Below are positions 9 to 35,674 of a stretch of 35,674 nucleotides of DNA, one piece after another. The stretch lies in the UHGV virus genome UHGV-0134856; one strand, written 5' to 3'. The stretch is from a virus. The notes under the pieces are model-generated. The model saw only the letters and a list, made by a program, of their open reading frames with translations. It did not search any database and had not been told where the DNA came from. Each line of letters opens with the position of its first letter. The first letter of the stretch is position 1. The translations under genes were made by a program, and so were the position numbers.

Positions 9-63
9 TGGTAGCCGGAGTGGGACTTGAACCCACACAGCGCGAACGCCGAGGGATTTTAAA
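9..63 (-). other. 3' 55-nt fragment of tRNA-Leu(UAA) (anticodon loop to CCA); att core/identity segment, not an intact tRNA gene
   Basis: Reverse complement reads TTTAAAATCCCTCGGCGTTCGCGCTGTGTGGGTTCAAGTCCCACTCCGGCTACCA. It matches the 3' part of enterobacterial leuZ with compensatory T-stem changes. The sequence 5' of it (64-95) cannot form an acceptor or D arm. Confidence 0.8.
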
Positions 64-198
64 TTGGTTGTTAAAACAAATAAAATCAATGGCTTATGAT
101 TTTTTTCCGAACATACAGCAAAGCTCCAACAGTTTAAATACATACACTTACAAACTAGTTTCTATCAATCTTCGGAATGGTTATTGAATAAAAATGCG

Positions 199-438
199 CT
201 AATCCGTTGCCTTGTACCACGCCTGCCAGCGATAAATATTTGTCCTCAGTTCCCGCACGCATTCCATCGTCTGAGTATCTGCCTGCAGGTCTTCGTCACT
301 ATCCCGCCCCGCGTCACTTGCCTTGCACGGTGGGTTCATCAAATCCTGGGATATTGTTGGCCGCATCGATTGCTCGCTGCCGCAGCTGCACAGCGTGATC
401 GTCAAAATCGCACTTAATATGATTCGGGTCGTTAACAT
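199..438 (-). CDS. o-spanin (Rz1-like outer-membrane lipoprotein), starts inside the i-spanin gene and extends past its end (overlapped architecture)
   Basis: N-terminal signal MLTTRIILSAILTITLCSCGS with Cys (lipobox-like), proline and cysteine in the short mature part, +1 frame within and beyond the Rz-like gene. Confidence 0.45.
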   Translation of the reverse strand: MLTTRIILSAILTITLCSCGSEQSMRPTISQDLMNPPCKASDAGRDSDEDLQADTQTMECVRELRTNIYRWQAWYKATD

Positions 439-673
439 ATTTCACCACGTCTCGGTAAATGATCCGGTAAATCACTTTACCCTCTGCACTGGCCGCCGCC
501 GCTTTCTGCTCGCCGATGGCGACGGCTTTCTCAGCTTTCTTCTGCTTCGCTTTTGCCTGGCTGTTAACGTGCTCGCTGTGCGCATACCACCCTTTGAGGT
601 AACCTACATAAAAGGTACCGACAAAAAACGCCAGCAGAACGGCCAGCGCTAACAGCTTTGCTTTTATCGTCAC
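314..673 (-). CDS. i-spanin (Rz-like type II inner-membrane protein)
   Basis: N-terminal TM (KAKLLALAVLLAFFVGTFYVGYL) followed by charged coiled-coil. GTG start at 673 with GGGGGA SD, overlapping the endolysin stop (GTGA). The ORF track's longer start at 691 is an alternative. Confidence 0.6.
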   Translation of the reverse strand: MTIKAKLLALAVLLAFFVGTFYVGYLKGWYAHSEHVNSQAKAKQKKAEKAVAIGEQKAAAASAEGKVIYRIIYRDVVKYVNDPNHIKCDFDDHAVQLRQRAIDAANNIPGFDEPTVQGK

Positions 674-1206
674 TGGTCTATCCCCCAGCACGCTAACGCG
701 CTTTCCTGATCCCGGCGCTCAACCTGACCATAGCAGCCATTCTTCTGGCCTTTGGTCAGTCTACAGTCACGGCCACCGTCTTTAATCCACCAGCGGATAG
801 CTTCGCATGCCCCTTTCCGATCACCGGCATTGATGCGTTTATAGAACGTTGACGGGAAGCATTTGCCGGGTCCGATGTTGTACGGACAGAAGGATGCGAT
901 ACCGGCTTTCTGCGGTTCGGTCAGAGGAACTTTGATATTGCGGTTTACCCATGCCAGCGCTTTATCGCGCTCGATGGCGTTTACCTGATCGCATTTAGCC
1001 TGTGTAAGCTTCATGCCCTGCACCACCGGTCTGCCATCCACCATCGTGGCGCCACGGCAAATCGTCCAGATGCCGCCACCGTCTTTGTACGCGGTTAGGC
1101 TGTTTCCCTCTTTCTCATTCAGGAACTGGTCAAGAATGACAGATGCTGGCGCGCCAGCGAGCACCAGCCCCAGAACAGCAGCACTTAGTTTCGACCTGTT
1201 ATTCAT
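670..1206 (-). CDS. SAR endolysin, T4-lysozyme family (GH24) muramidase
   Basis: Catalytic E-x8-D-x5-T triad (NEKEGNSLTAYKDGGGIWTICRGAT), weakly hydrophobic Ala/Gly/Leu-rich N-terminal signal-anchor-release segment, position between holin and spanins. Confidence 0.9.
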   Translation of the reverse strand: MNNRSKLSAAVLGLVLAGAPASVILDQFLNEKEGNSLTAYKDGGGIWTICRGATMVDGRPVVQGMKLTQAKCDQVNAIERDKALAWVNRNIKVPLTEPQKAGIASFCPYNIGPGKCFPSTFYKRINAGDRKGACEAIRWWIKDGGRDCRLTKGQKNGCYGQVERRDQESALACWGIDQ

Positions 1207-1532
1207 GATTGGATCTCCGTCTCGGCCATAACGCGCTGTACCTTCGCGACGACTTCATCGGTCTGGTCGATACTGTGGGAATCTGAGCGGCTAAGATATT
1301 CGATAACCGCACGTGTACGCTGGCGGTCTAACGCCAGACGCTCCGCTGATGCGTGGCGATCGGCTTTAATCTTTGCCCTGCGGTCAAGCCAGCCAAGCAG
1401 GGAAAGAAGGAAGCCGAGAACGGCCAGGACAAGATAGGTAAGGTCTAACGTCGTAATTCCGAGATAAGCAGCAATCGTCGTGATACCGTTACCGAACCAT
1501 GACAACCAGTTATTTTGTGGATTCATCCTCAT
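1203..1532 (-). CDS. Holin (two TMDs) with dual-start motif
   Basis: 109 aa, two hydrophobic helices, charged C-terminus, N-terminal Met-Arg-Met dual start as in lambda S107/S105, directly upstream of the endolysin. Confidence 0.7.
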   Translation of the reverse strand: MRMNPQNNWLSWFGNGITTIAAYLGITTLDLTYLVLAVLGFLLSLLGWLDRRAKIKADRHASAERLALDRQRTRAVIEYLSRSDSHSIDQTDEVVAKVQRVMAETEIQS

Positions 1533-1586
1533 GCCTTACCCCCGCGGGGTCCACTTTTGATAGCGGTGAGGGTAAGACGCTCACCC

Positions 1587-1602
1587 GGTCGGAATCCCGA
1601 CT
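1587..1602 (-). promoter_or_regulatory. Late-unit hairpin motif copy a (GGTCGGAATCCCGACt), about 55 nt upstream of the holin start
   Basis: 16-bp inverted repeat, member of a 5-copy family. Confidence 0.5.
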
Positions 1603-1729
1603 ATATTGTGGAGGTCGATTCAGGCAACCACTGATGGTAAACTCTCTCCAATCCTTAAAAAACCTCGAAAGACCTGGGTTTATCGTGGCTGTTAAGAGGC
1701 GACGAACTGTTAATTAAATCGAAAAGGCA

Positions 1730-1919: not shown

Positions 1920-3053
1920 ATGGTTAATATGAAAACAGAAAAACTTAATGGAATTGAGGCGCTAAGGGGTATCGCTGCCTTGGTTGTTGCACTTGGTCAT
2001 AACCGGGGACTATTTGGACAGGTAGATCCTGGGTCCTTTATGGATAGAATCACGGCAAATGCTATATTTGGCGTTGAAGTTTTCTTCATAATTAGCGGTT
2101 TTATAATCTGCTATTCTACCAGAAACATAAAGGCGCCATCACTAAGAAATACATCCGCCTTTCTTATTAAAAGATTTTTCCGCATATACCCGGTATATTT
2201 TGTAATACTATCCATATACGTACTGCTTTTTTATAAGAATTTGTATACAGGAATCCATGCAGGTGGAGAACTGACTATACATAACATTATAAAGTCTATT
2301 TTCCTAATACCGCTGGATTGGAACTCATTACCACCTTACTATGGATGGGGAACTATAATCGTTTCGTGGTCACTTGGGTATGAGCTGTATTTTTATTTTG
2401 TATTTGCAATTTCCATGACAATAAGTATTAAATACAGGGCTATTATTTCATCATTAATATTGATAGCAGTCAGTATTTCTTTATCTTTGGCATTAAGCGA
2501 TAACATTATAATTGATGCGCAAAAATATTATTTCCAGGGAGGTTTTTTACTCTCTCATTTTGGATTTATAGGAAACCCAATTGTCTTTGATTTTATACTT
2601 GGAATGTTGATTTCACATATCACTCCTTATATTGACAGATTAAATATTAACAATGACATAGTTAACAGTTTCGCCATAGCATTCCTTGGCCTGTCATTCG
2701 TGTTTTGGTTGAATGGTATGTCAGAAGGTCATGGTATAACAAGATCTGCCTATATAGCATTCACTATAGTTATTTGCGTAATCACTCTTGAAAAGCACTC
2801 AATTATAAAATTCAGCAATGCCCTTACATCATTAGGCGCAATATCATACTCACTTTATTTGATACATGTGCCCGTAATAAAGTTTATAGAACTATATGGT
2901 CAACTTATTGGCTTAAACACTAATGTTAGATCGCTTGCACTGTATATATCGTCAATTACAATATCAATATGCCTTGCTTATATAATATATAACGCAATTG
3001 AAAAACCATTCATTAATACAGGCGCAAAACTAGCAAGGCGGATTTCTAAATAA
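1920..3053 (+). CDS. Acyltransferase family 3 integral membrane protein (O-antigen/LPS O-acetyltransferase type; lysogenic conversion moron)
   Basis: About 10 predicted TM helices, N-terminal EALRGIAALVVALGH motif typical of Acyl_transf_3, very AT-rich relative to flanking phage DNA, opposite strand to the late genes. Confidence 0.85.
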   Translation: MVNMKTEKLNGIEALRGIAALVVALGHNRGLFGQVDPGSFMDRITANAIFGVEVFFIISGFIICYSTRNIKAPSLRNTSAFLIKRFFRIYPVYFVILSIYVLLFYKNLYTGIHAGGELTIHNIIKSIFLIPLDWNSLPPYYGWGTIIVSWSLGYELYFYFVFAISMTISIKYRAIISSLILIAVSISLSLALSDNIIIDAQKYYFQGGFLLSHFGFIGNPIVFDFILGMLISHITPYIDRLNINNDIVNSFAIAFLGLSFVFWLNGMSEGHGITRSAYIAFTIVICVITLEKHSIIKFSNALTSLGAISYSLYLIHVPVIKFIELYGQLIGLNTNVRSLALYISSITISICLAYIIYNAIEKPFINTGAKLARRISK

Positions 3054-3058: not shown

Positions 3059-3090
3059 GGGCGTCTCACGACGCCTTATTTTTATACGTT
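3059..3090. terminator. Bidirectional rho-independent terminator between the acyltransferase (+) and tailspike (-)
   Basis: AAGGGCGTC-tcac-GACGCCTT stem followed by ATTTTTAT on plus, with a U-rich tract also on the minus side. Confidence 0.7.
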
Positions 3091-5076
3091 TGTCCCGTCA
3101 GCCCTCTGCCAGTTACCAGATGTTGCATTCCAGTAGATTGGAAGCCCCAATGTTGTATCGAAATAGGTGAACCCCATTCCAACACCTGTCGGCCTTGATG
3201 AGGTGGATCCGCTATAAAATGTGTCTGGAACTCCACGGCAAGCTAACACTCTATTTTTTGAACCCGGGTTTGTATTAATGTATATCTTTGTTGTCTGATC
3301 GTCATCTAGCTGAATACCCATTAGCGTAATATCAGTACAGCTAGCTGCTGGATCAGTAAATCCAATAGGCTGTACGTAATAACCACCATATGAGTACGAT
3401 GTCCCCATGGCTCCTCCAGATACTGTGGATTGCTTGCTGTTGCTTAGTGACATTCCTCCGGTTTTATTCCCATTTAAAATGTTTCCTCCAAAGTTACATT
3501 GAAACAGATTTAGGGCCCTAAGACCAAATGCGCCGCAATACGTAATCACATTATCTGAGAAGGTTCCAGAAACGCTGTTAGTTATTAAAACTCCGTCTTT
3601 TCCAAGGTCTCTACCAGCAGAGATGAGATTTCCAGTTATAGTGAAATAAGCAAGTCTGTCAAGGTCTAATGCAGATCCACGAATTGCATCCATAACACAA
3701 TGATTAATATGTATAGGGAATCCGTATGTTTTATCGCCAGGCAGTAACCCTGGCGCTGTGTATCTCTGGCGAACAACAAATTCTCCGTTATAGAAAATGC
3801 TGTTTGAGAGAACTGCATCTGTCGTATCAATCAAATCAATTGGTGAATTAGAGGAAAAGCAGTTTAACCACCGAGGCATCTCGCTAAGGTGATTATATGT
3901 ATTCGTCGTAGCTGCTCCGTAGAATGGACTACCCCAACGCTGGCAGAATATATAATCAATATAATGGAAGTTATCCATTATTGTCCCGGTGTTGTAGAAG
4001 AAACAGCGTTCCCACAGTGCGTGTTTCAAATGCCGGAATAAAAACGCGCTCGTGAGGGAAACATCCGCAGCGAATGTAAGATTACGAAATACTCCTCCAC
4101 GAACCTGGTTAGCATCTTCTGGTCCAGTTCCGTTTGCTGTGAACATGACGAATGTTGCATCAGTACCTGGATATTTTAGTTCAGTGTTAAAACCTAGACC
4201 TTCAATATTCCAGTTTGGAGGTAAAACAACCTCTCGCGTCTTCATATAGTAAATACCGGAGCTTCTAAGTCTGACGTTAGGGGATTTTACAAACGCTTTT
4301 GTGAATGCAAGGCTATTATCTACATTCATGTCATTAACCTTGCCGCCAAAATCTTCCAGAAAAACGAAATCATCGAGCTTGTCCTGCACGGTTCTTGGCA
4401 CACTGCCATCCGCAGGATACTGATATCCAATCTGTGAAGATCCTGTAGGCTTCGCCAGCTCTATCATCACGTCAGAGGCAGACCCTGATTCTGGCAACAC
4501 CGGAATAGGGTCACCTGAATTATTAAATGCCAGCAGTTTATTGCGACGCAGATCCAGCGAAGGTACTAACCCAACGGATTCCTCTGGAACGCGCAGCACC
4601 CGGGATAAAGATATGCTTTCTAAATACTTTTTAGTCACTGCGTCCTGCGCATTTACCGGATCTGCCAGTTTCTCAATACGATAACCCTCTGCATCAAAGG
4701 GACCACCGAACAGCGGGCGGCGAAGTGCCAGACCGAGATGTATACCGTAACGCTGTATCGCCATCCAGAGGCGGTCAAAATCCTTATTAACCGTGTCGGC
4801 CAGGAGGTCGCCGTTATCCTGATAATCGGTCAGCCTGTACGTTGGCACTACCCTCTCCAGCATCACAACCGATCCGCTGGCTGGCGGGGTGATAAAAATC
4901 ACATCCCCGCCGCCGATATTCCCTACCCCGGACACCGTGTACCCGCTAGTAATAACGGTGCCGTTAATTGTGACCTGAATATCACCGGAGTTGATGACAT
5001 AGAACTCGAAGGGAAAAACGGTGGTCAGGCCGTTGGCGTTATAAATTATATATGGAGTCTGGTTCGGTACCGACAT
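3082..5076 (-). CDS. Tailspike / tail fiber: T7 gp17-like N-terminal tail-attachment domain plus right-handed beta-helix (pectate-lyase-like) polysaccharide depolymerase domain
   Basis: N-terminus (YIIYNANGLTTVFPFEFYVINSGDIQVTINGTVITSGYTV...DAEGYRIEKLADPVNAQDAVTKKYL) follows the T7 gp17 N-domain pattern. The rest is Gly/Asn/Ser-rich repetitive beta-helix-like sequence. It sits after terL as in SP6/K1-5-type genomes. Confidence 0.85.
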   Translation of the reverse strand: MSVPNQTPYIIYNANGLTTVFPFEFYVINSGDIQVTINGTVITSGYTVSGVGNIGGGDVIFITPPASGSVVMLERVVPTYRLTDYQDNGDLLADTVNKDFDRLWMAIQRYGIHLGLALRRPLFGGPFDAEGYRIEKLADPVNAQDAVTKKYLESISLSRVLRVPEESVGLVPSLDLRRNKLLAFNNSGDPIPVLPESGSASDVMIELAKPTGSSQIGYQYPADGSVPRTVQDKLDDFVFLEDFGGKVNDMNVDNSLAFTKAFVKSPNVRLRSSGIYYMKTREVVLPPNWNIEGLGFNTELKYPGTDATFVMFTANGTGPEDANQVRGGVFRNLTFAADVSLTSAFLFRHLKHALWERCFFYNTGTIMDNFHYIDYIFCQRWGSPFYGAATTNTYNHLSEMPRWLNCFSSNSPIDLIDTTDAVLSNSIFYNGEFVVRQRYTAPGLLPGDKTYGFPIHINHCVMDAIRGSALDLDRLAYFTITGNLISAGRDLGKDGVLITNSVSGTFSDNVITYCGAFGLRALNLFQCNFGGNILNGNKTGGMSLSNSKQSTVSGGAMGTSYSYGGYYVQPIGFTDPAASCTDITLMGIQLDDDQTTKIYINTNPGSKNRVLACRGVPDTFYSGSTSSRPTGVGMGFTYFDTTLGLPIYWNATSGNWQRADGTNV

Positions 5077-5096: not shown

Positions 5097-6707
5097 TTAG
5101 TAATCGACGTCGACCAGATGATCTCCGTCACTTAACTGCCAATCTTCGCGCGTATGTCCGGTCGGAATCCCGACCACTTTCCCGATGCGTACAGGGGTCT
5201 GACTTATTGCTCCCGCGCCAGAGTCTATAAAGTCGTCCGGCTGGTTGGTCAGCGCCGGGTTAAAGTCACGCATCTGGTCGTACACAGGGCCGTCGAGCAC
5301 GTCAGTATGCGCCCACAGGAACCGCGAGGACAGCGGCGCTTCAAACGCATCGAGGATGCGTTTCTGCTTGTTGGTGATACTGAACTCTTCCCGGACGCCG
5401 CAGCCCGTCCCCTTGAGCGCCTGACGCAGTAATTTACCCGCGAAGCTGCCCGGGCCGTTTACTTCGACACAAACCACTGGGATCTGATATTTGAGCACCA
5501 GCTCTTTGATCTGCGCTACCTGCCCGCCGGTGATTTTGTCGTTATCGTCAAACTCCGCCAGCTCGCCGGTGAGTTCCTGGCAGATATGCCAGTACAGATG
5601 CCCCCTGGCATCCGTCAGCATCAGAGAGAACGCCGAGGCGTCAGCCTTAACCTTGCCAGTGGCCACATCCCACCAGGCGACAGCACCAACTATTTGCACG
5701 TTGCCAAGCCAGAGCGAGGCCGTGCGGTTTGCATAGCGGATCTGAGGGTGAATGTTGTATTCCCGGATGCGGTCAGGGTCGAGGCGAACGTCTCCGACGG
5801 GTTTACTGTGCAGCTGATACTGGCTATCCCACTCGTTAATCGTGCGGGTTTCTTTACGGCGGTTCTCCATTTCTTCACGGGTGAACCGTTCAGGCCAGGC
5901 GCAGTCTGCATAAAAATCGATAACCGTGTCCGGTGCGTCCGCAAACTCAACGCCGGACACGGTCAGCTTATAATCCACGTTTTCGACCAACAGTCGCGCC
6001 GCCTTGTGGATGCCCGCAAAGACATATTCCGGACGGAAAGATAACTCGTAGCGCAGCTGCGTTGCGTCTTTTGCCTCGATGCGTTTTTCTTTATCAAACA
6101 GCCGGATGGTAAGACAGTCAGCGCCCATAGACTCTACCTCATCGTAAAGGCTGTCATGCGTGTGTGGCGTACCAATGTAGAGTTTGCGCCCGCCGGGGAT
6201 CAGGATGTGGGTTTGCTCACCCAGGCGATAGCGCAACTTTTCACGCGCTTCCGGCGTCTGGATATTGCGGGGTACTTCAACGTCATCGTTCTGGCATTCG
6301 TTGGCGCGCGCTGAGGTTACGTTAGACAGGATGCCTTTTGCGTACATGCTGCCGTTACGTAAATCCAGCGCACCATTAACCCACCATTGCTCAACGGTTC
6401 CCTGCCCGTCAGGAAGCATACCTTTGGTCAGCGGATGGTTACGCAGGACGTTCTGAGTGTCACGGCTGGTTTTATACGCGGTTCCGTCTGATTCAGACTG
6501 ATGCAGAATGCGGTACTGACGATCGCAGTAGTATCGCCAGGCATTATAGACCGCAAGGATCGTTGATTTACCGAAACCACGGAAACAGCGAAGCACCGCG
6601 AGGTTTCCGCGATGCTCCAGCCAGTGGCAGGCCTGATAGTGGCAGTCCGGAACGTCCCAGTTCATTCGCTCCGCCCACATTAAAAAGAAGGCGAGGAACG
6701 AAATCAT
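5097..6707 (-). CDS. Terminase large subunit (T7 gp19-like)
   Basis: Walker A FRGFGKST in the same context as T7 gp19 (FRGIGKS), nuclease-like C-terminal half, ATGA overlap with the upstream small subunit. Confidence 0.9.
   Translation of the reverse strand: MISFLAFFLMWAERMNWDVPDCHYQACHWLEHRGNLAVLRCFRGFGKSTILAVYNAWRYYCDRQYRILHQSESDGTAYKTSRDTQNVLRNHPLTKGMLPDGQGTVEQWWVNGALDLRNGSMYAKGILSNVTSARANECQNDDVEVPRNIQTPEAREKLRYRLGEQTHILIPGGRKLYIGTPHTHDSLYDEVESMGADCLTIRLFDKEKRIEAKDATQLRYELSFRPEYVFAGIHKAARLLVENVDYKLTVSGVEFADAPDTVIDFYADCAWPERFTREEMENRRKETRTINEWDSQYQLHSKPVGDVRLDPDRIREYNIHPQIRYANRTASLWLGNVQIVGAVAWWDVATGKVKADASAFSLMLTDARGHLYWHICQELTGELAEFDDNDKITGGQVAQIKELVLKYQIPVVCVEVNGPGSFAGKLLRQALKGTGCGVREEFSITNKQKRILDAFEAPLSSRFLWAHTDVLDGPVYDQMRDFNPALTNQPDDFIDSGAGAISQTPVRIGKVVGIPTGHTREDWQLSDGDHLVDVDY
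5160..5175 (-). promoter_or_regulatory. Late-unit hairpin motif copy d (perfect GGTCGGAATCCCGACC), inside the 3' end of terL and about 85 nt upstream of the tailspike start
   Basis: Perfect 16-mer; placement like the T7 phi17 promoter inside the end of the preceding gene. Confidence 0.5.
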
Positions 6708-7045
6708 TTTTTCCCTTTCTGCAGGCGCTCAATAATCGCGGCCGCCTCTCGCTCAGCTTTTGAAACCTGCTGGCCCAGCGCAAAGGCTTCATCATCCTGA
6801 CCAGGATTATCGGATGGCGTACCGCCGCGCGTTTGCATGCCAATCAGGGAGTGAACCTTAATCAGCAGCGTCAGCGATGCGGCTGCATTCTTCTTATCCC
6901 AGTAGCGATCACCGCGTTCATCCTTGGTCAGTTCGCTCGGTTTCTTCCCCGCCCCCGGCCAGTTTTCCGGATCGGCTTCTTCGAGCACCACGTCGGTGAG
7001 TTTATCACTCAGTGCGGTAAGGCGTGTTTTGTAATCCTGATGCAT
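6704..7045 (-). CDS. Putative terminase small subunit (gp18 analogue)
   Basis: 113-aa hydrophilic protein directly upstream of and overlapping terL. The start at 7045 is chosen because the longer frame would place the intergenic hairpin motif inside the ORF; RBS is poor. Confidence 0.5.
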   Translation of the reverse strand: MHQDYKTRLTALSDKLTDVVLEEADPENWPGAGKKPSELTKDERGDRYWDKKNAAASLTLLIKVHSLIGMQTRGGTPSDNPGQDDEAFALGQQVSKAEREAAAIIERLQKGKK

Positions 7046-24073: not shown

Positions 24074-24075
24074 GC

Positions 24076-25343: not shown

Positions 25344-25346
25344 GCC

Positions 25347-28688: not shown

Positions 28689-29135
28689 TTAAACGCTGGT
28701 CAGGCGCTGTGTTTCCTGGATGGCTTGCAATGCCTGGGCTATCCTCTGCGGTCTATCCCTAGCATCCATCAGTAGCGCGATGATCGCCGCGGCAAACTCG
28801 CGTATCGCTACGCATATCAAATGCTGAGTAGTCATTCCCAGCTGCGCGTATCGTTCTGCGGGCAGCGCCGCTTCCATCGCCTTAGCCAGCGCTCTTGTTT
28901 TGGCTCTTGCCGCTTTAGTGTCGCCACGTAACCAGCGAAAAATTTGCTGGCGATTGTTGTTTATGGCCCGCCAGTCGGCGTTACCCATTGGGTCTTCCAT
29001 CTGGTGAAGCTTTACCGTGCTGGTGTTACCACCCATTCGGAACCACATGCGTGTGATTTCGATGGCAACATGTTCCTGCCCGCGCTCTACGGCCCAGTTG
29101 AAGATCTCCCGTTTCAGTTCATCGAGGTTTTCCAC
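28689..29135 (-). CDS. YdaT-family protein (functional CII analogue of Rac-like immunity regions)
   Basis: AVERGQEHVAIEIT...GG... and NNNRQQIFRWLRGDTKAARAKTRALAKAMEAALPAE parallel Rac YdaT (AAEKGQAWVANAIT...NNQQNIYHRWLKGETK..REKIQKLIPAILAILPRE). Confidence 0.6.
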   Translation of the reverse strand: MENLDELKREIFNWAVERGQEHVAIEITRMWFRMGGNTSTVKLHQMEDPMGNADWRAINNNRQQIFRWLRGDTKAARAKTRALAKAMEAALPAERYAQLGMTTQHLICVAIREFAAAIIALLMDARDRPQRIAQALQAIQETQRLTSV

Positions 29136-29200: not shown

Positions 29201-29434
29201 TTAAGCTGCTGCCCTGTCTGGGATCCCGTCTTTCGGGTTTGGATATAAATCAGGACGCAGATCATGTGGTGTTACTTGGAATTCTGTTGCAGCAGCCCAT
29301 TTAAGTGCCGTGGCAGCCCCAAGTAGACACTCTCCGGAAGCAACACGGCTGACATACCCCTGGGTCCGCCCCACGAGTACGGCGAAAGCCTGTTGCCTTA
29401 CACCGGATGTCTTTAAGTAAGTTTTCAGCTTCAT
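29201..29434 (-). CDS. Cro-like HTH regulator (YdaS family)
   Basis: 77-aa HTH (QQAFAVLVGRTQGYVSRVASGE), C-terminal HDLRPDL as in YdaS, divergent from the repressor gene; GAGG RBS. Confidence 0.75.
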   Translation of the reverse strand: MKLKTYLKTSGVRQQAFAVLVGRTQGYVSRVASGECLLGAATALKWAAATEFQVTPHDLRPDLYPNPKDGIPDRAAA

Positions 29435-29464
29435 ACGTACATCCTCAGTTGTTGATTAAACTGA

Positions 29465-29493
29465 ATATTAATAACGTTAATATTTTTAGTCAA
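29465..29493 (-). promoter_or_regulatory. PR-like promoter with operator: -35 TTGACT (29493-29488), 17-bp spacer, -10 TAATAT (29470-29465); operator 19-mer ATATTAATAACGTTAATAT at 29465-29483
   Basis: Near-consensus sigma70 hexamers on the minus strand reading toward cro; the 19-mer recurs inverted at 30112-30130. Confidence 0.65.
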
Positions 29494-29540
29494 TATCACT
29501 GACCTTAGAACTTGATTAATTTTGCGAATAATATGCGCTC

Positions 29541-29996
29541 ATGAGAAAGAAAACCCTTGATGCAGTTGAAACTGACGCAGCTAAACGTCTCCGTGAGATA
29601 TGGAATGCAAAAAAAGTTACTTTGCGCCTTACTCAGGAAAAGGCGGCGGAGGCCCTTGGTTTCAGCACGCAGGCTTCGGTAAGCCATTACCTTAACGGTA
29701 CGACTCCTTTAAACACGGACGCCACCCTCAAATTTGCGTCTCTGTTAGGGGTTAAGCCTGAAGCTATTCGACCAGATCTGGCCGAAATGATGAACTATGT
29801 GCGTAAGTCAGGGGATTACGTCGAGGACAGGACTGGGCCAGGCTGGAAGCTTCTCAGCCCAGAGCATGTGGAACTAATAACACTGTATGACAGACTTCCG
29901 CAAAGCGAAAAAGAAAGGCATTTGTCTGATTTAAAAGAAAAAATACAAGATTTTGATAAGCTTTTCGAAGAGCTTTTAGCCGCCAGAAAACAATAA
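29541..29996 (+). CDS. CI-like repressor (HTH XRE family, no peptidase S24 domain; RacR-like size)
   Basis: HTH LTQEKAAEALGFSTQASVSHYLNG, 151 aa, divergent from cro; candidate PRM (-35 TTAGAA, -10 TAATAT) would give a leaderless mRNA. Confidence 0.8.
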   Translation: MRKKTLDAVETDAAKRLREIWNAKKVTLRLTQEKAAEALGFSTQASVSHYLNGTTPLNTDATLKFASLLGVKPEAIRPDLAEMMNYVRKSGDYVEDRTGPGWKLLSPEHVELITLYDRLPQSEKERHLSDLKEKIQDFDKLFEELLAARKQ

Positions 29997-30085: not shown

Positions 30086-30130
30086 AATTAATATATTAAT
30101 ATTGACCATTTATATTAACGTTATTAATAT
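30086..30130 (+). promoter_or_regulatory. PL-like promoter with operators: -35 TTGACC (30102-30107), 17-bp spacer, -10 TAATAT (30125-30130); operator 19-mer at 30112-30130 plus palindrome AATTAATATATTAATATT at 30086-30103
   Basis: The module TTGAC(C/T)-N17-TAATAT with embedded 19-mer is an inverted copy of the PR module. Confidence 0.65.
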
Positions 30131-30145
30131 CCAGAACATCAACGA

Positions 30146-31138: not shown

Positions 31139-33352
31139 GTGACAATCTCAATTTACAACTGCCTGTTTAAGCCGAAAAAATCGGCCATCAAAGATGGTGC
31201 CGTTGCGCTGGCGATCAGCGTGGAAGCACCAAACAAAAAAATCGCAGAAAGCATCGTGACGGGTAAGCTCTGGGAGCACTATCCGGCGAACGGCGATAAC
31301 TTCTTTAAACCTGAAATATGGGAAAACACAGCTGATCAGCCTCACCCGGAGATCGGCAAGTTTGACGAGCACTTTGCTAAATCCCACACGTTCGATGGCG
31401 AAAAGTGGTTGGTAAATGCCGCCGAAACAGATGCCAGCGCGAATCCTCTACCTGGCAGTAATGAAAAATTAGACTTTATGTCTATTTCACCGCGCGAACG
31501 CTTCGCAACAGTAGTGCTGTTTGGCCTCGCGCAGCTGGATGGTGAGCTTTATTCTCAGGTTTGTGATTATCTTGATAACCTCGAAAACACCAGCCAGTAC
31601 GATGAAGAGGAAGACGATCGTTTAAATCGTTACATCATTAATGCGATGGAAGCGCACCCACCTGTTCACCACATGCACCAGGAGGGGTTGAATAATCTCC
31701 TGCAGGCAATTTATGTGAAGTTTGAAAACCAGTTACCCGGCGGTGCCGCGCTTTACTCTTTTATTAAAAAATGGACAGACTATCCGGGAAAACGTGAAGA
31801 ATTGCTGCTTCAGAACAGCACCAGCACCAGCACCAGCACCAGCAAACAAGATAGCCCCACGGGCCAGATTGCACCACAGCGCGGTTATAAACACACCTAT
31901 GCCACGTTGGATCAGGAGATCGCTCTGGCGCTGCTGCCAATAGAACCGGCGACCACTGTATCTGTCAGCGCTTTGCGCCAGGCGGAGAGCCTCATTGAAG
32001 AAGGCCGGGAAGACTTTAAACGCTGGTCTATGGCGCTTCGCACTACTGAGCAGATCCTCAAATATTCCCGCAACACTATTTTTGGCGTGATTCAGAATGT
32101 GCCGGCGAAAGATACCCATCACTTCCCTGACTCATCGCGCCGTTACATCGACAGCTGGCTTGCCGAAAATGGTGTGCTTGAACAGGATCCCAATGATACG
32201 GAGGCAACCAGCAAATCACTGGCAGCCGGGCGTGGTGAATATGTCGAAGGTATAAGCGACCCCACCGATCCAAAGTGGGTAAAAACAGAGAATCAGACCA
32301 CACAGCCGATCGCCTCAAATGAGGTGGAAGAAACGGAAGTGGTTACTGATTCACAGGCTGAGGCCGCACGTGAAACGCTTAATAAAATGGGCTACAGCGT
32401 TTACGCCAGTGAATCAGGGCAGGAGCAAGACAGCAGCGATCAAGATAATGGCGCGAAGCAGCCAGAAGCCCAACAGGTGCAAGATGAGCCCCGCCCTAAC
32501 GTTAATGACGTTGAAAAGAGCCTCTCCGAACGCACCGGCACAGAACTGGAGAACCTTGATCTCTGGAAGCGCGTTTTCAAAACCGATGAGCGTTTTACCA
32601 AGCAGTTTAGTGTTAACGGTGGCGGCACGTCGATCAACGGCACATACATGACAATGCTGGCCACCCGTGAATTCGGCCCGAAAGGTATTGGCTGGGGCGT
32701 TGATATCCTTGAAGAGCGTTTTGATGATGGCGCACCAATAACCCGCACGGTAAAAGGCCCGGACGGGAATAATACATGGGAGCTTATCCCAAACGGTTAC
32801 GGCGGCTATCTCACAGAAAAACACCACGTCATTAAGATTCGCCTCTGGTATGTGCGTAACGGTGAACGTGGAGAGGAGATCTCTTTCGGCTGTACGCAAT
32901 ATATCTACGGGAGTAAACACGGCCCGATTTGCGATGGCGAAGCGACTAAAAAATCACTTACCGATGCGACCAAAAAGGCGCTCTCCTCCCTCGGTTTCAG
33001 CGCCGATATCTTTATGGGTCTCTACGATAACCCTGAGTATCGGCAGAAAAACAAAGAAGAATTTGCCCTTAAAAATGCCAGCGATAATGCAGAAGATGCT
33101 GCGCGTCTGCGTCAGGAGCTGGACGACAAACTTACGCGGGTGGCAAACACACTGGCAACCGGTGTTTCTGCCAATGAAGTTACGAAAGTATTCGCATCTA
33201 TCGCCCGTGAAGTGGAGGTGCACCGTAAAGATGCTGAGGCTAAAGGCGACAGCCAGCATGCTAATTACCTTAGTAAACGTCTGCGTCGCCTGACCACCAT
33301 CAAAGACGAACGTCTGAAAGAACTGAACAAGACCCAGGAGAAAACAGCATGA
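31139..33352 (+). CDS. ERF-family single-strand annealing protein with long N-terminal extension (737 aa; Erf-like core at about residues 480-640)
   Basis: C-terminal part parallels P22 Erf (FGPKGIGWGVDILEE vs FGKYKYRSCEDILEG; GEATKKSLTDATKKALSSLGFSADIF vs MDAAQVTGATSSYARKYCLNGLFGIDD). GTG start with GAGGAAAGACC RBS; acidic N-terminal 450 aa of unknown function. Confidence 0.65.
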   Translation: MTISIYNCLFKPKKSAIKDGAVALAISVEAPNKKIAESIVTGKLWEHYPANGDNFFKPEIWENTADQPHPEIGKFDEHFAKSHTFDGEKWLVNAAETDASANPLPGSNEKLDFMSISPRERFATVVLFGLAQLDGELYSQVCDYLDNLENTSQYDEEEDDRLNRYIINAMEAHPPVHHMHQEGLNNLLQAIYVKFENQLPGGAALYSFIKKWTDYPGKREELLLQNSTSTSTSTSKQDSPTGQIAPQRGYKHTYATLDQEIALALLPIEPATTVSVSALRQAESLIEEGREDFKRWSMALRTTEQILKYSRNTIFGVIQNVPAKDTHHFPDSSRRYIDSWLAENGVLEQDPNDTEATSKSLAAGRGEYVEGISDPTDPKWVKTENQTTQPIASNEVEETEVVTDSQAEAARETLNKMGYSVYASESGQEQDSSDQDNGAKQPEAQQVQDEPRPNVNDVEKSLSERTGTELENLDLWKRVFKTDERFTKQFSVNGGGTSINGTYMTMLATREFGPKGIGWGVDILEERFDDGAPITRTVKGPDGNNTWELIPNGYGGYLTEKHHVIKIRLWYVRNGERGEEISFGCTQYIYGSKHGPICDGEATKKSLTDATKKALSSLGFSADIFMGLYDNPEYRQKNKEEFALKNASDNAEDAARLRQELDDKLTRVANTLATGVSANEVTKVFASIAREVEVHRKDAEAKGDSQHANYLSKRLRRLTTIKDERLKELNKTQEKTA
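31817..31843 (+). repeat. Hexanucleotide microsatellite (AGCACC)x4.5 encoding STSTSTSTS within the ERF-fusion gene
   Basis: Perfect tandem repeat read directly. Confidence 0.9.
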
Positions 33353-33909
33353 GCAAGGTAACCGCAATCGCATTAGCAAATGATTACTCCAGCCTGTTAA
33401 ATCTGCTGGAAACCTCTGACGAGTTAACGCCAGAAATGATCGCCGACACCCTGGAAGGGATTGAAGGTGAGCTGGCCGATCGCCTGGATGCAGTTATGGT
33501 GGTGGCGCGTAACAACCTGGGCAACGCGAAAACCTGTGAAGAAGAGATGAAGCGTCTGGCTGAGCGCAAAAAATCTTTCGAAAATAAAGACAAGCACCTC
33601 CGCAAGTATATTCTGTCATGCCTGTTAGGCGCTGGACTGGATAAGCTGAAAACCCCCAGAAACACCTTTACTGCTCGTCAGGGTACTGTAAGCGTGGTGG
33701 TCGACAATGTTGATGCGTTACCTGACGAAGTGGTCACAGTTCAGACAGTAATCGCCCCTGACAAGAAGGCCATCAAAGAAAGGATAGAGGCAGCCGAAGC
33801 TGCAGCGGAACAAATCAGAGCCGATGGTGGCGAGGTACCGGAAGAGTTGCTTAATCCGGTACCGGGTGCGCATCTTGAAGTCGGCGAACGTTCATTACAG
33901 GTGCGCTAA
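33349..33909 (+). CDS. Siphovirus Gp157-family protein (commonly paired with Erf/Sak recombinases)
   Basis: IADTLEGIEGELADRLDAV...EEEMKRLAERKKSFENKDKHLRKYI fits the Gp157 family pattern; 4-nt overlap with the upstream erf-like gene. Confidence 0.6.
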   Translation: MSKVTAIALANDYSSLLNLLETSDELTPEMIADTLEGIEGELADRLDAVMVVARNNLGNAKTCEEEMKRLAERKKSFENKDKHLRKYILSCLLGAGLDKLKTPRNTFTARQGTVSVVVDNVDALPDEVVTVQTVIAPDKKAIKERIEAAEAAAEQIRADGGEVPEELLNPVPGAHLEVGERSLQVR

Positions 33910-33911
33910 TC

Positions 33912-34094
33912 ATGCTGAAACTAACTCTCAAAAGAGGTGATGCGGTACACGTGGTGTTTCCGGATGGAACAAACGGGATCATCGAAGCGCGTAGCCGCAG
34001 CGAACTGGGGTTACATCTTCCGGATAACGTCAAGGTTACACGAGAGAAAGGCGCGTTTCTGAAAGATAACCTGATTAAGCGTAATCAGAATTAA
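33912..34094 (+). CDS. CsrA/RsmA-like small protein (60 aa)
   Basis: MLKLTLKRGD vs CsrA MLILTRRVGE; GLHLPDNVKVTREK vs GVNAPKEVSVHREE (the Gly, Pro, V-x-V and R-E positions line up with the CsrA RNA-binding segment); same length as CsrA (61 aa). Confidence 0.45.
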   Translation: MLKLTLKRGDAVHVVFPDGTNGIIEARSRSELGLHLPDNVKVTREKGAFLKDNLIKRNQN

Positions 34095-34144
34095 TCCCTC
34101 TCAGCCGATAGCATTGTGGCCTCAAACACCTAATGGAGGCCGCA

Positions 34145-34369
34145 ATGCTGCACTGGCAACCCGGAGCAATTCTGCTCTCAGACTTTGATACCAAGATCGG
34201 AAAATTATCAGCGAGCGTACGAAAGAAGACCCTGACCAGGTCGGATATAGAGCGCGCCTGTAGAGACGCTGACGATGCGATATACCGCATGTTGAGGAAA
34301 GACCATGAGACACGATCACGACATTATCACCCGAGAAGAGATGATAGAACTGACGGGGACTCCGCTTAA
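34145..34369 (+). CDS. Hypothetical protein (75 aa); C-terminus overlaps the xis-like gene
   Basis: Strong GGAGG RBS before Met 34145; low-complexity C-terminal tail overlaps the next gene by 65 nt in another frame, so doubtful. Confidence 0.3.
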   Translation: MLHWQPGAILLSDFDTKIGKLSASVRKKTLTRSDIERACRDADDAIYRMLRKDHETRSRHYHPRRDDRTDGDSA

Positions 34370-34553
34370 ATCAAAACAGTGCGACGCTCTGCGTCGAGCC
34401 GGGATATTCTTTATGGAAAGAGCGGACGGCCACCCTAAAACAACATGGGGGCATTTCATGAACCCCATTAAATACCGCAACCAGGAAATCACTCCGGTGC
34501 GCGAGGATGAAGAACCAGACTTCGGAGCCGTATTTGATGGCCGGAAAGCGTAA
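34305..34553 (+). CDS. Excisionase-like small DNA-binding protein (82 aa)
   Basis: Immediately upstream of and overlapping int; GAGGAAAGACC-ATG RBS; basic; size and position typical of Xis. Confidence 0.5.
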   Translation: MRHDHDIITREEMIELTGTPLKSKQCDALRRAGIFFMERADGHPKTTWGHFMNPIKYRNQEITPVREDEEPDFGAVFDGRKA

Positions 34554-35553
34554 AAACCCCGCTGACAGCTGGATGCCACCGCGTGTATATCGCGGCAAAG
34601 CTGCTTATGAATTTCGGACTAAAGATAACAAAGCCGTTCGCCTGTGCGCTCTTAACGAAACGCAAGCATCGGTATGGCTGGCGTATGAAAAAGCCGTTGG
34701 CGAAGAAGTCAGGAAAAATACATTCCAAACCCTCGCAGATATGTTTATGGCCTCCCCCGACTTTATGGATTTATCACCGGAAACCAGAAAGGATTACACG
34801 AAATATTCGGGTAAGGTATTACCCGTTTTTGGCAAAACAGACCCCAATAAAATAAAGCCCGAGCACATTCGGCGTTATATGGATCAGCGTGGTATTTCCA
34901 GCCGAACGCAGGCAAACAGGGAAAAGAGTTTCCTTTCACGGGTATTTCGTTGGGGCTACGAACGCGGATATGTAGAAAGAAACCCATGTCAGGGGGTTAA
35001 GCAATTCAAGGAAGTATCACGCGAGCGCTATGTGACAGATGAAGAATACAAAGCGGTATATGAGGTTGGGGCTGATGTGGTCAGAGCTGCAATGGAAATC
35101 GCTTATTTATGCGTTGCCAGGCAAAGCGATGTCCTGTCTTTAAGTGAAGAGCAGATTAGCGATATGGGGATATTTATCCGCCAGGGTAAAACTGGCGTGA
35201 AGCAGATCAAAGCATGGACACCCCGTTTACGCGCAGCGGTTTCGCTGGCGCGCGCACTGCCTCTAAAGCCAGGCATAAGGAGTCTGTTTCTTATCCATCA
35301 GCCCAGTGGAAGCAAATACACCCGTGATGGTTTTAACTCGCGCTGGCGTGAGGCAAAGCTGGCAGCCCAGGCTAAATACCCTCACCTGTCGATTGATTTC
35401 ACTTTCCACGATCTTAAAGCAAAAGGCATCTCTGATCTCGAGGGTAGCCTCGAAGAGAAACAGGCAATCTCCGGCCATAAAAACTCGAGACAAACAGCAA
35501 TTTATGACAGGAAGGTAAAAGTGGTGCCGGTAGTTGGAGGGCAAAAAAACTGA
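34507..35553 (+). CDS. int: Tyrosine site-specific integrase (lambda Int family)
   Basis: N-terminal arm-binding-like MPPRVYRGKAAYEF, core-binding and catalytic domains with R...HxxR...Y arrangement; alternative start at Met 34537. Confidence 0.9.
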   Translation: MKNQTSEPYLMAGKRKNPADSWMPPRVYRGKAAYEFRTKDNKAVRLCALNETQASVWLAYEKAVGEEVRKNTFQTLADMFMASPDFMDLSPETRKDYTKYSGKVLPVFGKTDPNKIKPEHIRRYMDQRGISSRTQANREKSFLSRVFRWGYERGYVERNPCQGVKQFKEVSRERYVTDEEYKAVYEVGADVVRAAMEIAYLCVARQSDVLSLSEEQISDMGIFIRQGKTGVKQIKAWTPRLRAAVSLARALPLKPGIRSLFLIHQPSGSKYTRDGFNSRWREAKLAAQAKYPHLSIDFTFHDLKAKGISDLEGSLEEKQAISGHKNSRQTAIYDRKVKVVPVVGGQKN

Positions 35554-35616
35554 TTGGATATGCGTTCGACGTAAATTCATCTTCGGACGCATCTTCGGAA
35601 AAACAATTTTCTGGCA

Positions 35617-35640
35617 TAAAAAAACCACCTTTCGGTGGTT
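35617..35640 (-). terminator. Leftward intrinsic terminator at the prophage right end (blocks read-in from the flanking host side)
   Basis: AACCACC-tttc-GGTGGTT stem followed by T6 on the minus strand. Confidence 0.6.
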
Positions 35641-35674
35641 TACACGACACTGCTTATCATTGATTTTATTCTAG

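Follow-up and report, generated by a model that had tools for sequence, protein, structure and literature searches.

The DNA analyzed here (UHGV virus genome UHGV-0134856; hereafter the window, that is, the whole stretch of 35,674 nucleotides) is one unit of a temperate podophage prophage that resides in the leuZ tRNA-Leu(UAA) gene of an enterobacterium and is complete and probably active. The element is best described as a temperate podophage of the epsilon15/BPP-1-related group that lacks a phage RNA polymerase (RNAP) and possesses a T7-type terminase and gene order, not as a rare T7-lambda chimera. As a whole, this explanation, namely a leuZ podophage that combines an RNAP-less, epsilon15/BPP-1-related virion module with a lambdoid early module and operates along the lines proposed below, appears to us likely to be correct. 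A previous sequence-only reading had presented the same DNA as a rare mosaic, a prophage of the T7 supergroup without RNAP that is driven by a Rac/lambdoid-type switch. The outline of that view stands (a temperate element, a podovirus virion module in the T7/SP6 order, no RNAP, a lambda-style early region, insertion at tRNA-Leu), whereas the nearest relatives it named, the claim of rarity and the 'Rac' label do not. The integrase gene, the att sites in leuZ and the virion genes bear out that the element is temperate and encodes a podovirus-type virion.

Gene content and affinities of the virion module

The late operon occupies the minus strand and proceeds from the portal gene to the terminase, tailspike and lysis genes. 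Its content and order follow the T7/SP6 scheme, as had been read from the sequence alone and is now confirmed by the succession of open reading frames (ORFs) together with Pfam and PHROG assignments. The head and tail-tube genes encode the portal (18631..20256; Head-tail_con, 9e-120; PDB 8ck0, 1.5e-51; T7 portal 6r21, 1.4e-8), a Bbp19-like small protein (18401..18634; Phage_Bbp19, 9.3e-12), a scaffold/assembly protein (17578..18414; phrog_3742, 2.6e-82), a major capsid protein of the Phage_capsid_2 type (16247..17158; PF19821, 2.4e-67; phrog_3437, 7.6e-122), a protein resembling tubular tail protein A or an adaptor (15626..16189; phrog_394, 4.9e-61; phrog_9239 'tail tubular protein', 5.3e-14) and the nozzle or tubular tail protein B (13633..15624; Phage_nozzle, 1.6e-8; PDB 8ck1 'Tail Nozzle', 1.9e-104). 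The slot of internal virion protein (IVP) A, corresponding to gp13, is occupied by a GNAT acetyltransferase (13182..13631; Acetyltransf_1, 4.6e-11) that is kept in 59 relatives; the IVP-A proteins of T7 and epsilon15 match acetyltransferases as well (PMC4819975). Then follow an IVP-B-like protein (12712..13179; phrog_418, internal virion protein, 4.3e-41; T7_gp14, 6e-4, which is sub-threshold), a 902-aa IVP-C-like protein with a lytic transglycosylase domain (10001..12709; Pfam SLT, 2e-10) and a 963-aa IVP-D-like protein (7110..10001; phrog_342 'internal virion protein with endolysin domain', 1.3e-203).

The large terminase (TerL) is of the T7 type (5097..6707; Terminase-T7_RNaseH-like; phrog_38, 7.9e-85), and its only matches in PDB are T7 gp19 (4bij and 8dgc, at 1e-17). 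The preceding gene, for a 113-aa protein (6704..7045; phrog_9277, function unknown), is a small terminase candidate on account of its position, its stop/start overlap with the TerL gene and the annotation of its homologue in phage Piluca as small terminase. The tailspike (3082..5076) consists of an N-terminal adaptor of the T7 gp17/epsilon15 gp20 type and a beta-helix (Phage_T7_tail, 4.4e-13; Beta_helix, 1.6e-5; phrog_7173 tail spike, 1.1e-65). Ahead of the portal gene on the same strand are two small late genes with no assigned function, which encode proteins of 75 aa (20260-20487) and 161 aa (20501-20986) (phrog_9015 and phrog_17476; gene calls in identical contigs); the 161-aa protein is also common to relatives with a PolA-type early module.

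The affinities of these proteins were assessed by comparing family profiles derived from related loci with single T7 and epsilon15 proteins using hhalign; the single-sequence T7 targets limit the sensitivity of this comparison. High probabilities with epsilon15 and low ones with T7 were obtained for tubular protein A (98.9% with epsilon15 gp11 vs 0.5% with T7 gp11), the nozzle (100% with epsilon15 gp12 vs a borderline 35.8% with T7 gp12), IVP-B (95.3% with epsilon15 gp14 vs 0.1% with T7 gp14), the SLT protein (94.6% with epsilon15 gp15 vs 2.5% with T7 gp15), the scaffold (94.2% with epsilon15 gp6 vs 2% with T7) and the spike N-terminus (99.7% with epsilon15 gp20 vs 6.5% with T7). The portal matches both phages (100% for epsilon15, 96.9% for T7), and T7 gp13 and gp16 scored 0.2% and 4.7%, respectively, against the family profiles. 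TerL is the only late protein that matches T7 but not epsilon15 (98.9% with T7 gp19, 0.3% with epsilon15 TerL). For the capsid, neither hhalign (1.4% with T7 gp10, 0.1% with epsilon15 gp7) nor tblastn detected a match to the T7 and epsilon15 capsids, and there was no match among PDB sequences; its relatives are found in YeP4-6, Piluca and phages of the Pelagibacter HTVC010P, Liberibacter SC1 and Vibrio VP2 types.

When 15 late proteins were compared with T7 by tblastn, TerL was the sole match, with 33% identity over 195 aa of the N-terminal ATPase. The same searches matched the portal, scaffold, tubular proteins A and B, SLT protein and spike N-terminus to epsilon15, and the portal, both tubular proteins, the SLT protein and the spike N-terminus to BPP-1. 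Among PDB sequences, 8ck0 and 8ck1 are the best matches of the portal and nozzle, with T7 portals next at 1e-8; a search with epsilon15 gp4 indicates that 8ck0 is a close relative of this protein and not epsilon15 itself. At the DNA level, positions 8445-11374 of the window are 72% identical to the epsilon15-like phage TL-2011b.

Given that epsilon15 matches far better than T7 for most virion proteins, the nearest characterized relatives of the element are the epsilon15/BPP-1 group of temperate podophages without RNAP. Judging from sequence comparison, the virion module belongs to the 'epsilon15' tail-structure group of Hardies et al. (2016), which includes BPP-1, VP5 and Liberibacter SC1 (PMC4819975), and yet carries a T7-type terminase in the T7 position. 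The links to T7 are limited to the portal, the large terminase, the fibre N-terminus and the gene order. Accordingly, of the T7 parallels noticed earlier, those with gp8 (Head-tail_con and the hhalign match), gp19 and the N-terminal part of gp17 (Phage_T7_tail) hold, whereas the one with gp11 goes over to epsilon15. In profile searches, the portal falls into Head-tail_con, TerL into the T7 type and tubular protein B into Phage_nozzle; the assignment to non-T7 families that would have refuted the sequence-only reading was not seen.

Absence of a phage RNA polymerase

No RNAP gene was detected in the window, either with a profile of the T7, SP6 and phiKMV polymerases run against all six-frame ORFs of at least 40 aa or by tblastn with each of the three (best E 0.37-0.43), nor did the large ORFs of the window yield an RNA_pol match in Pfam; all coding-strand ORFs of at least 300 aa carry another functional assignment. 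The absence of a phage RNAP that had been noted from the sequence is thus confirmed over six frames (best E = 0.37). The same holds for 79 related loci, in stretches of up to 10 kb on either side of the portal gene, and for 80 IMG/VR contigs picked by the (CG)7 motif described below. All transcription of the element would accordingly have to be carried out by the host RNAP.

Distribution and closest relatives

In one-genome-per-species collections, the portal retrieves 72 loci from Gamma- and Betaproteobacteria, including Enterobacter, Raoultella, Serratia, Pectobacterium, Pantoea, Pseudomonas, Stenotrophomonas, Acinetobacter, Burkholderia, Comamonas and others. Roughly half of the loci from Enterobacterales carry the lambdoid DnaB/O/YdaT set, and the other half PolA/VapE. 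The lineage is widespread and little studied, not a rare one-off mosaic. By comparison of the sequences, the same virion module is joined to a lambdoid early module here, whereas sister prophages combine it with a PolA/primase module like that of BPP-1. Of the earlier statement that mosaics of this kind are rare and poorly characterized, only the latter half stands: in view of the 72 loci and the isolated phages YeP4-6, Piluca and vB_EcoM_APEC, rarity is unsupported, whereas the transcription of these phages is unpublished. In this analysis, we delineated a YeP4/Piluca-like lineage by a Phage_capsid_2 capsid, a T7-type TerL gene located after the IVP genes, and a (CG)7 element with a small helix-turn-helix (HTH) gene before the portal gene, all of which are present in the element. 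The traits of Uetakevirus, namely an Sf6/P22-type terminase before the portal and a gp7 capsid with a gp10 staple, are not those of the element.

The Yersinia phages YeP4, YeP5 and YeP6 (MK733262-4) and a dusA prophage of E. coli B379 share with the window the virion module in the same order, the absence of RNAP, the homologue of the small HTH protein (HTH96) and a (CG)7-like element. Amino acid identity to YeP4 is 80% for the portal, 85% for the capsid, 76% for the nozzle and 78% for TerL, and the B379 prophage shows 88% DNA identity over window positions 206-20818. Mitomycin C induced YeP4-6, which transmission electron microscopy showed to be podoviruses and which form turbid plaques (PMC6548840). 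Both YeP4 and the B379 prophage differ from the window in having a BPP-1-type early module, with PolA, DUF2800/DUF2815, VapE primase, SNF2 helicase, an S24 (LexA-like) repressor and a dusA integrase, and in lacking the LexA box and the 63-aa gene discussed below; the early region of BPP-1 itself follows the same plan.

Alcaligenes phage Piluca (MZ326864) shares the whole architecture of the element: CI/Cro, recombination genes, integrase, lambdoid replication and nin-type genes, the (CG)7 element with the HTH homologue, and the late genes from portal to lysis (portal, capsid, tail, GNAT, IVPs, small terminase, T7-type TerL, tail fibre, lysis genes). Its published description is that of a temperate podophage whose tail proteins resemble their T7 and epsilon15 counterparts (PMC9022569). 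Piluca differs in its distance (30-47% aa identity), in having Bet/Exo and RusA in place of the ~735-aa protein and the Gp157 protein, and in its DnaA-like initiator.

The virion module is also paired with O and DnaB in vB_EcoM_APEC (MT664721). This phage was published as a myovirus, yet its genome encodes a podovirus-type portal, tubular proteins A and B and a T7-type TerL; the published work reported myo- and siphovirus particles in the induced lysate. The genome that was sequenced and the particle that was imaged may belong to different phages.

Boundaries and integration site

The element spans from a 64-bp att core, which contains the 3' part of tRNA-Leu(UAA), to just short of the intact leuZ gene. 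The core copy distal to int (1..64, minus strand) comprises 8 nt plus the 56-nt 3' part of the tRNA gene, which begins with the CCA end at position 9 and reaches the anticodon loop; read as the reverse complement, positions 9-64 give the last 56 nt of tRNA-Leu(UAA). ARAGORN identified no complete tRNA gene in the window, and no Rfam model matched anywhere in it at the gathering threshold. In a contig from GCA_050880905.1, the 64 nt after the last base of the window are identical to window positions 1-64 and form part of an intact tRNA-Leu gene. Given this copy directly past the window end, the window represents exactly one prophage unit with one copy of the att core. The duplicated core and the flanks of the source contig place the insertion in leuZ, in agreement with the tRNA-Leu site proposed earlier.

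The exact integrase protein adjoins tRNA-Leu, tRNA-Cys and tRNA-Gly, followed by pgsA, uvrC, uvrY and an sdiA-like gene, in four contigs. An identical portal is found on 19 contigs, 129 index blocks of a sequence collection contain the identical integrase, and identical or near-identical copies of the element are present in several assemblies and metagenomes. The ORF listing and the Pfam, PHROG and NCBIfam scans show a gap-free phage genome in which all genes are intact and closely packed from att to att. The integration genes encode a 338-aa tyrosine integrase (34537..35553, plus strand; Phage_integrase, 3.9e-8; Phage_int_M) and a Xis-like DUF4224 protein (34305..34553, plus strand; PF13986, 3.5e-14). 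A 13-nt inverted repeat, AATAAAATCAATG / CATTGATTTTATT, occurs at 79-91 and 35658-35670, which in the circular form puts one arm 14 nt from the att core on one side and the other arm 4 nt from it on the other; it could possibly represent integrase or IHF sites, or a chance match.

A syntenic prophage with ~78% identity occupies the same tRNA gene (leuZ) in E. coli 23GD11002. This copy contains, at 36012-37208 of its own sequence, an insertion of the IS110 family and a DUF2971 gene where the window has a 112-aa regulator gene and nin genes, lacks the LexA box, and may be decaying.

The early region and the immunity switch

The characterization of the early region as lambdoid holds, with CI and Cro, an O-like initiator with iterons, DnaB, nin-like genes, Xis and int all accounted for. 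The CI-like repressor (29541..29996, plus strand) is a 151-aa XRE-type HTH protein with matches to HTH_3 and HTH_31 only; residues 105-151 match the DicA model at 1.5e-14, and Pfam shows no Peptidase_S24 domain. The gene is flanked by a 36-nt inverted repeat with 86% complementarity (29461-29496 and 30099-30134), each arm of which contains a good promoter of the sigma-70 type and an operator palindrome of the form TATTAA(T)AACGTTA(T)TAATA. The rightward promoter (29461..29496, minus strand) is TTGACT-17-TAATAT with the palindromic operator TATTAATAACGTTAATA, and the mirror-image leftward promoter (30099..30134, plus strand) is TTGACC-17-TAATAT with the same palindrome. A terminator is located after cI, at 30021-30038. 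As far as can be judged from the DNA, these mirror-image operator-promoters around cI embody the OR/OL logic of lambda: one promoter would drive cro, ydaT, O, dnaB and the nin genes, and the other the recombination genes, xis and int.

Along the minus strand, the Cro-like HTH protein (29201..29434; HTH_31, 7e-4, and YdaS_toxin, 0.0018, both sub-threshold) is followed by a YdaT-like protein in the position of the CII regulator (28689..29135; YdaT_toxin, 7.7e-21; PDB 8bt1, 2e-5). The O-like replication initiator (27451..28446; HTH_36, 9.1e-13; phrog_428 and phrog_8540, 'replication initiation O-like') contains within its gene, at 28076-28165, three to four copies of a ~23-nt iteron spaced by 21-24 nt; it shows no significant match to YdaU. 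Next comes a DnaB-type replicative helicase (26066..27454; DnaB_C, 1.1e-71) and a nin-like cluster (23147..26024) with DUF3850/ASCH, Lar, a DNA polymerase III theta-like protein, small uncharacterized proteins and a 225-aa protein. Within this cluster, the theta-like (HolE-like) gene maps to 25095-25343 and the Lar restriction-alleviation gene to 24468-24692, both on the minus strand. Closer to the late genes are a DUF1367/NinB-like protein (21785-22381; DUF1367, 7.3e-86; phrog_319 NinB/Orf, 1.1e-71) and a Ref-like HNH nuclease (21471-21773; RecA_dep_nuc, 2.6e-14), also on the minus strand. No ORF between cro and the portal gene matches an N- or Q-family antiterminator in Pfam or PHROGs, divergent analogues being possible.

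The recombination genes on the plus strand (31145..33909) encode a protein of ~735-737 aa (phrog_2489 'exonuclease') and a Sipho_Gp157 protein (Sipho_Gp157, 1.8e-33). The former had been taken for Erf, an assignment we do not retain: no Erf family match was found, and what is seen is a RecE N-terminal-like stretch (partial match to NF007259, 4.2e-23) and a sub-threshold Rad52_Rad22 match (E = 0.042) in the C-terminal 268 aa. The 'Rac-type' designation of the switch fares better for one component than for the others. It is supported by the layout and by the YdaT-like protein, which is 34% identical to Rac YdaT (E = 5.6e-12), but not by the repressor (E = 0.43 between CI and RacR), and the relationship to YdaS is marginal (E = 0.015 for the Cro-like protein; 18.5 bits against Pfam YdaS_toxin, for which the cut-off is 30). 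Parts of this early module are common to siphoviruses, for example Stenotrophomonas phage BUCT708, as expected for lambdoid mosaics.

A candidate SOS-controlled antirepressor

A LexA box, TACTGTAAATTTATACAGTT, with two mismatches to the 20-nt consensus (0.01 expected by chance) is located at 22658..22677 on the minus strand, where it overlaps the -10 element of a promoter, TTTGCA-18-TATATA. Just downstream, a strong Shine-Dalgarno sequence and a GTG start codon precede a 63-aa gene (22449..22640, minus strand; phrog_340; gene call in identical contigs). The LexA box and the 63-aa gene co-occur in six relatives of the lambdoid type (Enterobacter, Raoultella, Serratia, Symbiopectobacterium), and both are absent where the repressor is LexA-like. 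Given their position and conservation, the product of the 63-aa gene is a candidate SOS-controlled antirepressor for the peptidase-less repressor. LexA-controlled antirepressors coupled with non-cleavable repressors are known from coliphage 186 (Tum) and the Gifsy phages. Because the CI-like repressor cannot cleave itself, SOS induction would proceed through the gene behind the LexA box, with the promoter activating the 63-aa antirepressor and the latter acting on the repressor.

The (CG)7/HTH96 cassette and other candidates for late control

The late module is headed by a gene for HTH96, a 96-aa XRE-type HTH protein without a Pfam family (21023..21313, minus strand). The element TATGCT-(CG)7-TTTT (21328..21351, minus strand), which is present in a single copy in the window (0 expected by chance), lies 18 nt upstream of its start codon. 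Homologues of HTH96 were identified in 62 of the 79 loci, always on the late strand and 0.5-4 kb upstream of the portal gene, whichever early module is present; the family comprises 1,121 cluster representatives at E <= 1e-3. When the upstream DNA of lambdoid- and PolA-type loci is aligned, conservation starts sharply at TATGCT-CGCGCGCGCGCGCG-TTTTG. Within 160 nt upstream of the HTH gene, a (CG)7 match of at least 12/14 is found in 40 of 59 non-identical loci, compared with 0.007 expected per search window elsewhere in the loci. With its flanks (yCT...TTT), the motif is present in the window and in 46 loci (47 sequences in all), some of them from AT-rich Acinetobacter, as well as in YeP4 and Piluca. 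The Acinetobacter loci retain the motif even though their HTH gene is too diverged for tblastn, and conservation of the pair extends from Enterobacterales as far as Acinetobacter and Comamonas. When IMG/VR was scanned for nothing but the 19-nt motif, at least 120 contigs were returned, and an HTH homologue was located no more than 520 nt downstream in 68 of the 80 that were fetched. Both the (CG)7 element and the HTH gene are absent from epsilon15, BPP-1, T7 and vB_EcoM_APEC. A literature search found no published (CG)n phage element.

Two simple accounts of the motif were set aside. A constraint acting on RNA only is unsupported, there being no strand bias of wobble-type changes: C>T deviations in the 5' half are about as frequent as G>A deviations in the 3' half. 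Nor is a plain intrinsic terminator the main reading, given that only 3-4 T follow the stem, that a terminator scan does not call it and that its fold has z = -1.65 relative to shuffled sequences. The AlphaFold (AF2) model of HTH96 (pLDDT 75.5) consists of a Cro/CI-type helical domain between two strands, with CapH, restriction-modification controller proteins, P22 c2 and SinR as the best Foldseek matches (E = 0.02-0.2). From position, conservation and predicted fold, we favor a reading in which (CG)7 would be the operator of HTH96 and the cassette would gate entry into the late operon or autoregulate it. In such a scheme, rightward transcription of the minus strand would run on toward the late module, and entry into the ~21-kb late operon would be gated by this lineage-specific cassette, with a small dimeric XRE-type protein acting on the 14-bp (CG)7 palindrome in the manner of a controller protein.

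Terminator-like hairpins occur at several points of the same strand. One, with 7 G-C pairs followed by TTTTTT, is located directly after the capsid gene (16213..16231), the position of Tphi in T7, and another, with a 9-bp stem followed by TTTTT, between the IVP-D and terminase genes (7051..7073). These two imply attenuation or some antitermination, and could set the levels of downstream expression. The strongest hairpin in the window is a bidirectional terminator (22777..22794) located after the gene for a 112-aa regulator-like protein (22816..23154, minus strand; phrog_536, transcriptional regulator). The latter is 68% identical to epsilon15 gp49 over its C-terminal 76 aa; homologues are present in Tyrion, SPC32H and phiV10 (comparable position, with the gene at the record end), and also in ZF40 and phiKO2, and a literature search on the function of epsilon15 gp49 found nothing useful. 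In epsilon15, gp49 is likewise the last gene before a terminator, followed by packaging and late genes. The 225-aa protein of the nin-like cluster (25347..26024, minus strand; phrog_4183) scores 19.4 bits with Pfam BPP1_LPA ('late promoter-activating protein'), below the cut-off of 35; the name of that family presumably refers to Lpa of phage P1 and not to Bordetella BPP-1. The 225-aa protein is found only with lambdoid-type early modules, also in the Stenotrophomonas siphophage BUCT708 and in ZF40, and tblastn against phages matched it to hypothetical proteins only, with no match in P1, which makes it a weak lead.

Alternative explanations

Several observations weigh against the scheme outlined above. 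The N and Q controls of lambda late expression were not found, and the 112-aa gp49-like protein before the terminator and the 225-aa protein are competing candidates for a late regulator. The Foldseek matches of HTH96 are generic for XRE domains. Furthermore, the 18 nt between (CG)7 and the HTH96 start codon leave no room for a promoter, so binding at this site could repress rather than activate. As for the T7-like character of the virion, direct hhalign matches to T7 are missing for gp11, gp13-16 and the capsid. An unlikely alternative to the cassette is late control in the style of lambda Q, whereby the 112-aa protein would render the host polymerase terminator-resistant, so that it passes the strong terminator at 22777..22794 as well as the hairpins that follow the capsid and IVP-D genes, and (CG)7 would be something else, such as a pac site or a weak attenuator hairpin. 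The place of gp49 in epsilon15 and the three terminator-like hairpins that break the late strand speak for it; (CG)7 is single-copy, as a pac site would be; HTH96 weakly matches HTH models of small terminase subunits and sigma region 4; and Piluca packages by a headful mechanism (PMC9022569). Nevertheless, PolA-type relatives and the E. coli 23GD11002 prophage keep the same late module although they have no 112-aa protein. Moreover, (CG)7 is associated with HTH96 rather than with the terminase: in vB_EcoM_APEC, whose TerL is 42% identical, both the motif and the HTH gene are missing. The short T run, the negative terminator call and a fold no better than that of shuffled sequences argue against an attenuator too, and a plain terminator would not be expected to keep strict CG alternation from Enterobacter to AT-rich Acinetobacter.

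With regard to the element as a whole, it is improbable that it represents a defective, cryptic remnant like Rac that makes no particles and is kept for its cargo (the acyltransferase described below, immunity), even if its switch, with YdaT and a DicA-like repressor, recalls the cryptic Rac, Qin and CP-933P, homologues of N or Q were not detected in Pfam or PHROGs, and the inducibility of this copy is a prediction from its sequence. Every gene of the 35.6-kb genome is intact, the copies in several assemblies and metagenomes are identical or nearly so, relatives with 65-85% aa identity in conserved virion proteins are inducible and plaque-forming, and the E. coli 23GD11002 copy with its insertion illustrates, by contrast, what decay looks like. 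The view inherent in the sequence-only reading, that of a rare and recent recombinant between a lytic T7-type virion module and a lambdoid prophage, we consider highly improbable. It can draw on the T7-type TerL, the Head-tail_con portal, the T7 fibre N-terminal domain and the T7/SP6 order found beside lambdoid genes, and on the scarcity of the module in E. coli, where at least 50% of the late region is present in 3 of 5,426 complete genomes. The virion module is, however, seen only in temperate contexts, in 72 loci of two proteobacterial classes without RNAP within the up to 10 kb on either side of the portal gene, its pairing with lambdoid genes recurs in Enterobacter, Raoultella, Serratia, Symbiopectobacterium, E. 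coli and Alcaligenes (Piluca), and for most virion proteins the temperate phages epsilon15 and BPP-1 are nearer relatives than T7. An RNAP diverged beyond recognition, such as an N4-like virion polymerase domain within a large IVP that would use a hairpin promoter such as (CG)7, appears extremely improbable. The early promoters of N4 are DNA hairpins, which counts for this view, as does the lack of a Pfam domain in the 963-aa IVP-D-like protein. In N4, the virion RNAP is embedded in the IVP-D homologue (PMC4819975). Against it, neither the single-subunit profile of three polymerases nor Pfam gave a polymerase signal; the 963-aa protein matches phrog_342, the T7 gp16-type internal virion protein, nearly over its whole length (residues 25-962), which leaves no room for a polymerase domain of ~1,100 aa; and (CG)7 is single-copy and located ahead of late, not early, genes. 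The reading we prefer is that of an intact temperate podophage of the epsilon15/BPP-1-related group transcribed by the host RNAP.

Lysis genes and an acyltransferase gene

The lysis genes at the end of the late operon (minus strand) encode a holin candidate with two hydrophobic segments (1203..1532), whose syntenic counterpart in E. coli relatives carries the annotation class II holin, an endolysin (670..1206; Phage_lysozyme, 2.8e-25) whose DNA is 83-87% identical to the lysozyme genes of N15 and Eeyore, and a probable Rz-like spanin (314..691), predicted from its position after the lysozyme gene and its N-terminal hydrophobic anchor, with no Pfam match. Between the tailspike and lysis genes, the late run is broken by a gene on the opposite strand for a membrane acyltransferase (1920..3053, plus strand; Pfam Acyl_transf_3, 2.6e-28) with a GC content of 0.334; in the E. 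coli B379 relative, too, this slot is occupied by an acyltransferase gene. This gene is likely a moron that modifies the O-antigen or capsule (lysogenic conversion), and its location beside a beta-helix tailspike suggests serotype conversion by the lysogen.

Implications

The prophage is an ordinary member of a common but under-described lineage, and the general picture of phage mosaicism is unchanged. It provides a clean and complete example of a T7-ordered virion operon with a T7-type terminase that is stable without a phage RNAP and is swapped between two kinds of early modules, which bears on the possible origin of Autographiviridae from temperate ancestors. Two leads emerge, namely the SOS-controlled 63-aa candidate antirepressor of a non-cleavable DicA-like repressor and the (CG)7/HTH cassette that perhaps times the late genes. 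We tentatively entertain, while considering it rather doubtful, the stronger proposition that (CG)7 and the XRE-type gene constitute an undescribed late switch that defines the lineage, lets the host RNAP express the T7-ordered operon and makes the virion module portable among early modules of unrelated kinds (lambdoid, PolA/primase). If true, the cassette would be the counterpart, in RNAP-less podophages, of the T7 polymerase and its promoters.

Comparison with known phage systems

The element shares with T7 and SP6 the late gene order, with the terminase genes located after those for the internal virion proteins. In SP6, the spike gene follows the terminase, as it does here. Shared with T7 are the portal family, the gp17 N-terminal domain, the T7-type TerL and a terminator after the capsid gene. 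Unlike T7 and other Autographiviridae, the element has no RNA polymerase, phage DNA polymerase or primase-helicase; furthermore, Autographiviridae are lytic and use one strand, whereas the element is temperate, with CI, recombination, xis, int and acyltransferase genes on the opposite strand.

The epsilon15 and BPP-1 phages are temperate podophages without RNAP, like the element, and epsilon15 has a homologous portal, tubular proteins A and B, IVP-B, SLT-bearing IVP and spike N-terminus (hhalign 94-100%), as well as a GNAT protein in the IVP-A slot and conversion genes after the tail spike. The differences concern packaging and the head. The epsilon15 terminase is of the P22/Sf6 type, and in both phages the terminase genes are upstream of the portal gene, whereas here they come after the internal virion proteins. 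The capsid of epsilon15 and BPP-1 belongs to another sequence family (no tblastn match in BPP-1), and no homologue of the auxiliary capsid protein (epsilon15 gp10, BPP-1 Bbp16) is annotated at the corresponding position in the element. Neither phage has HTH96 or (CG)7.

With lambdoid phages, the element shares the divergent CI/Cro pair with common operators at two promoters and an O-type initiator with internal iterons followed by a helicase; they differ in their N and Q antiterminators and LexA-like self-cleaving CI, which were not found here. The immunity regions of Rac, Qin and CP-933P likewise combine a divergent repressor and Cro-like pair with a YdaT homologue followed by replication genes, and their repressor also lacks a peptidase domain. 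In comparison with Rac, the repressor of the element is not detectably related to RacR, being DicA-like only at its C-terminus, and the O-like and DnaB proteins are unrelated to YdaU and YdaV; moreover, Rac, Qin and CP-933P are cryptic, whereas this element is intact.

The proposed late cassette most closely recalls the controller (C) proteins of restriction-modification systems, in which a small XRE-fold protein is likewise encoded just downstream of a palindrome and ahead of the genes that are timed. C.BclI, C.Kpn2I, C.EcoT38IS, C.AhdI and C.Esp1396I are among the best fold matches of HTH96, at the generic level given above (E = 0.02-0.2). The arrangement of the sites differs, with a double C-box upstream of the promoter in the controller systems and a single 14-bp palindrome 18 nt from the start codon here.

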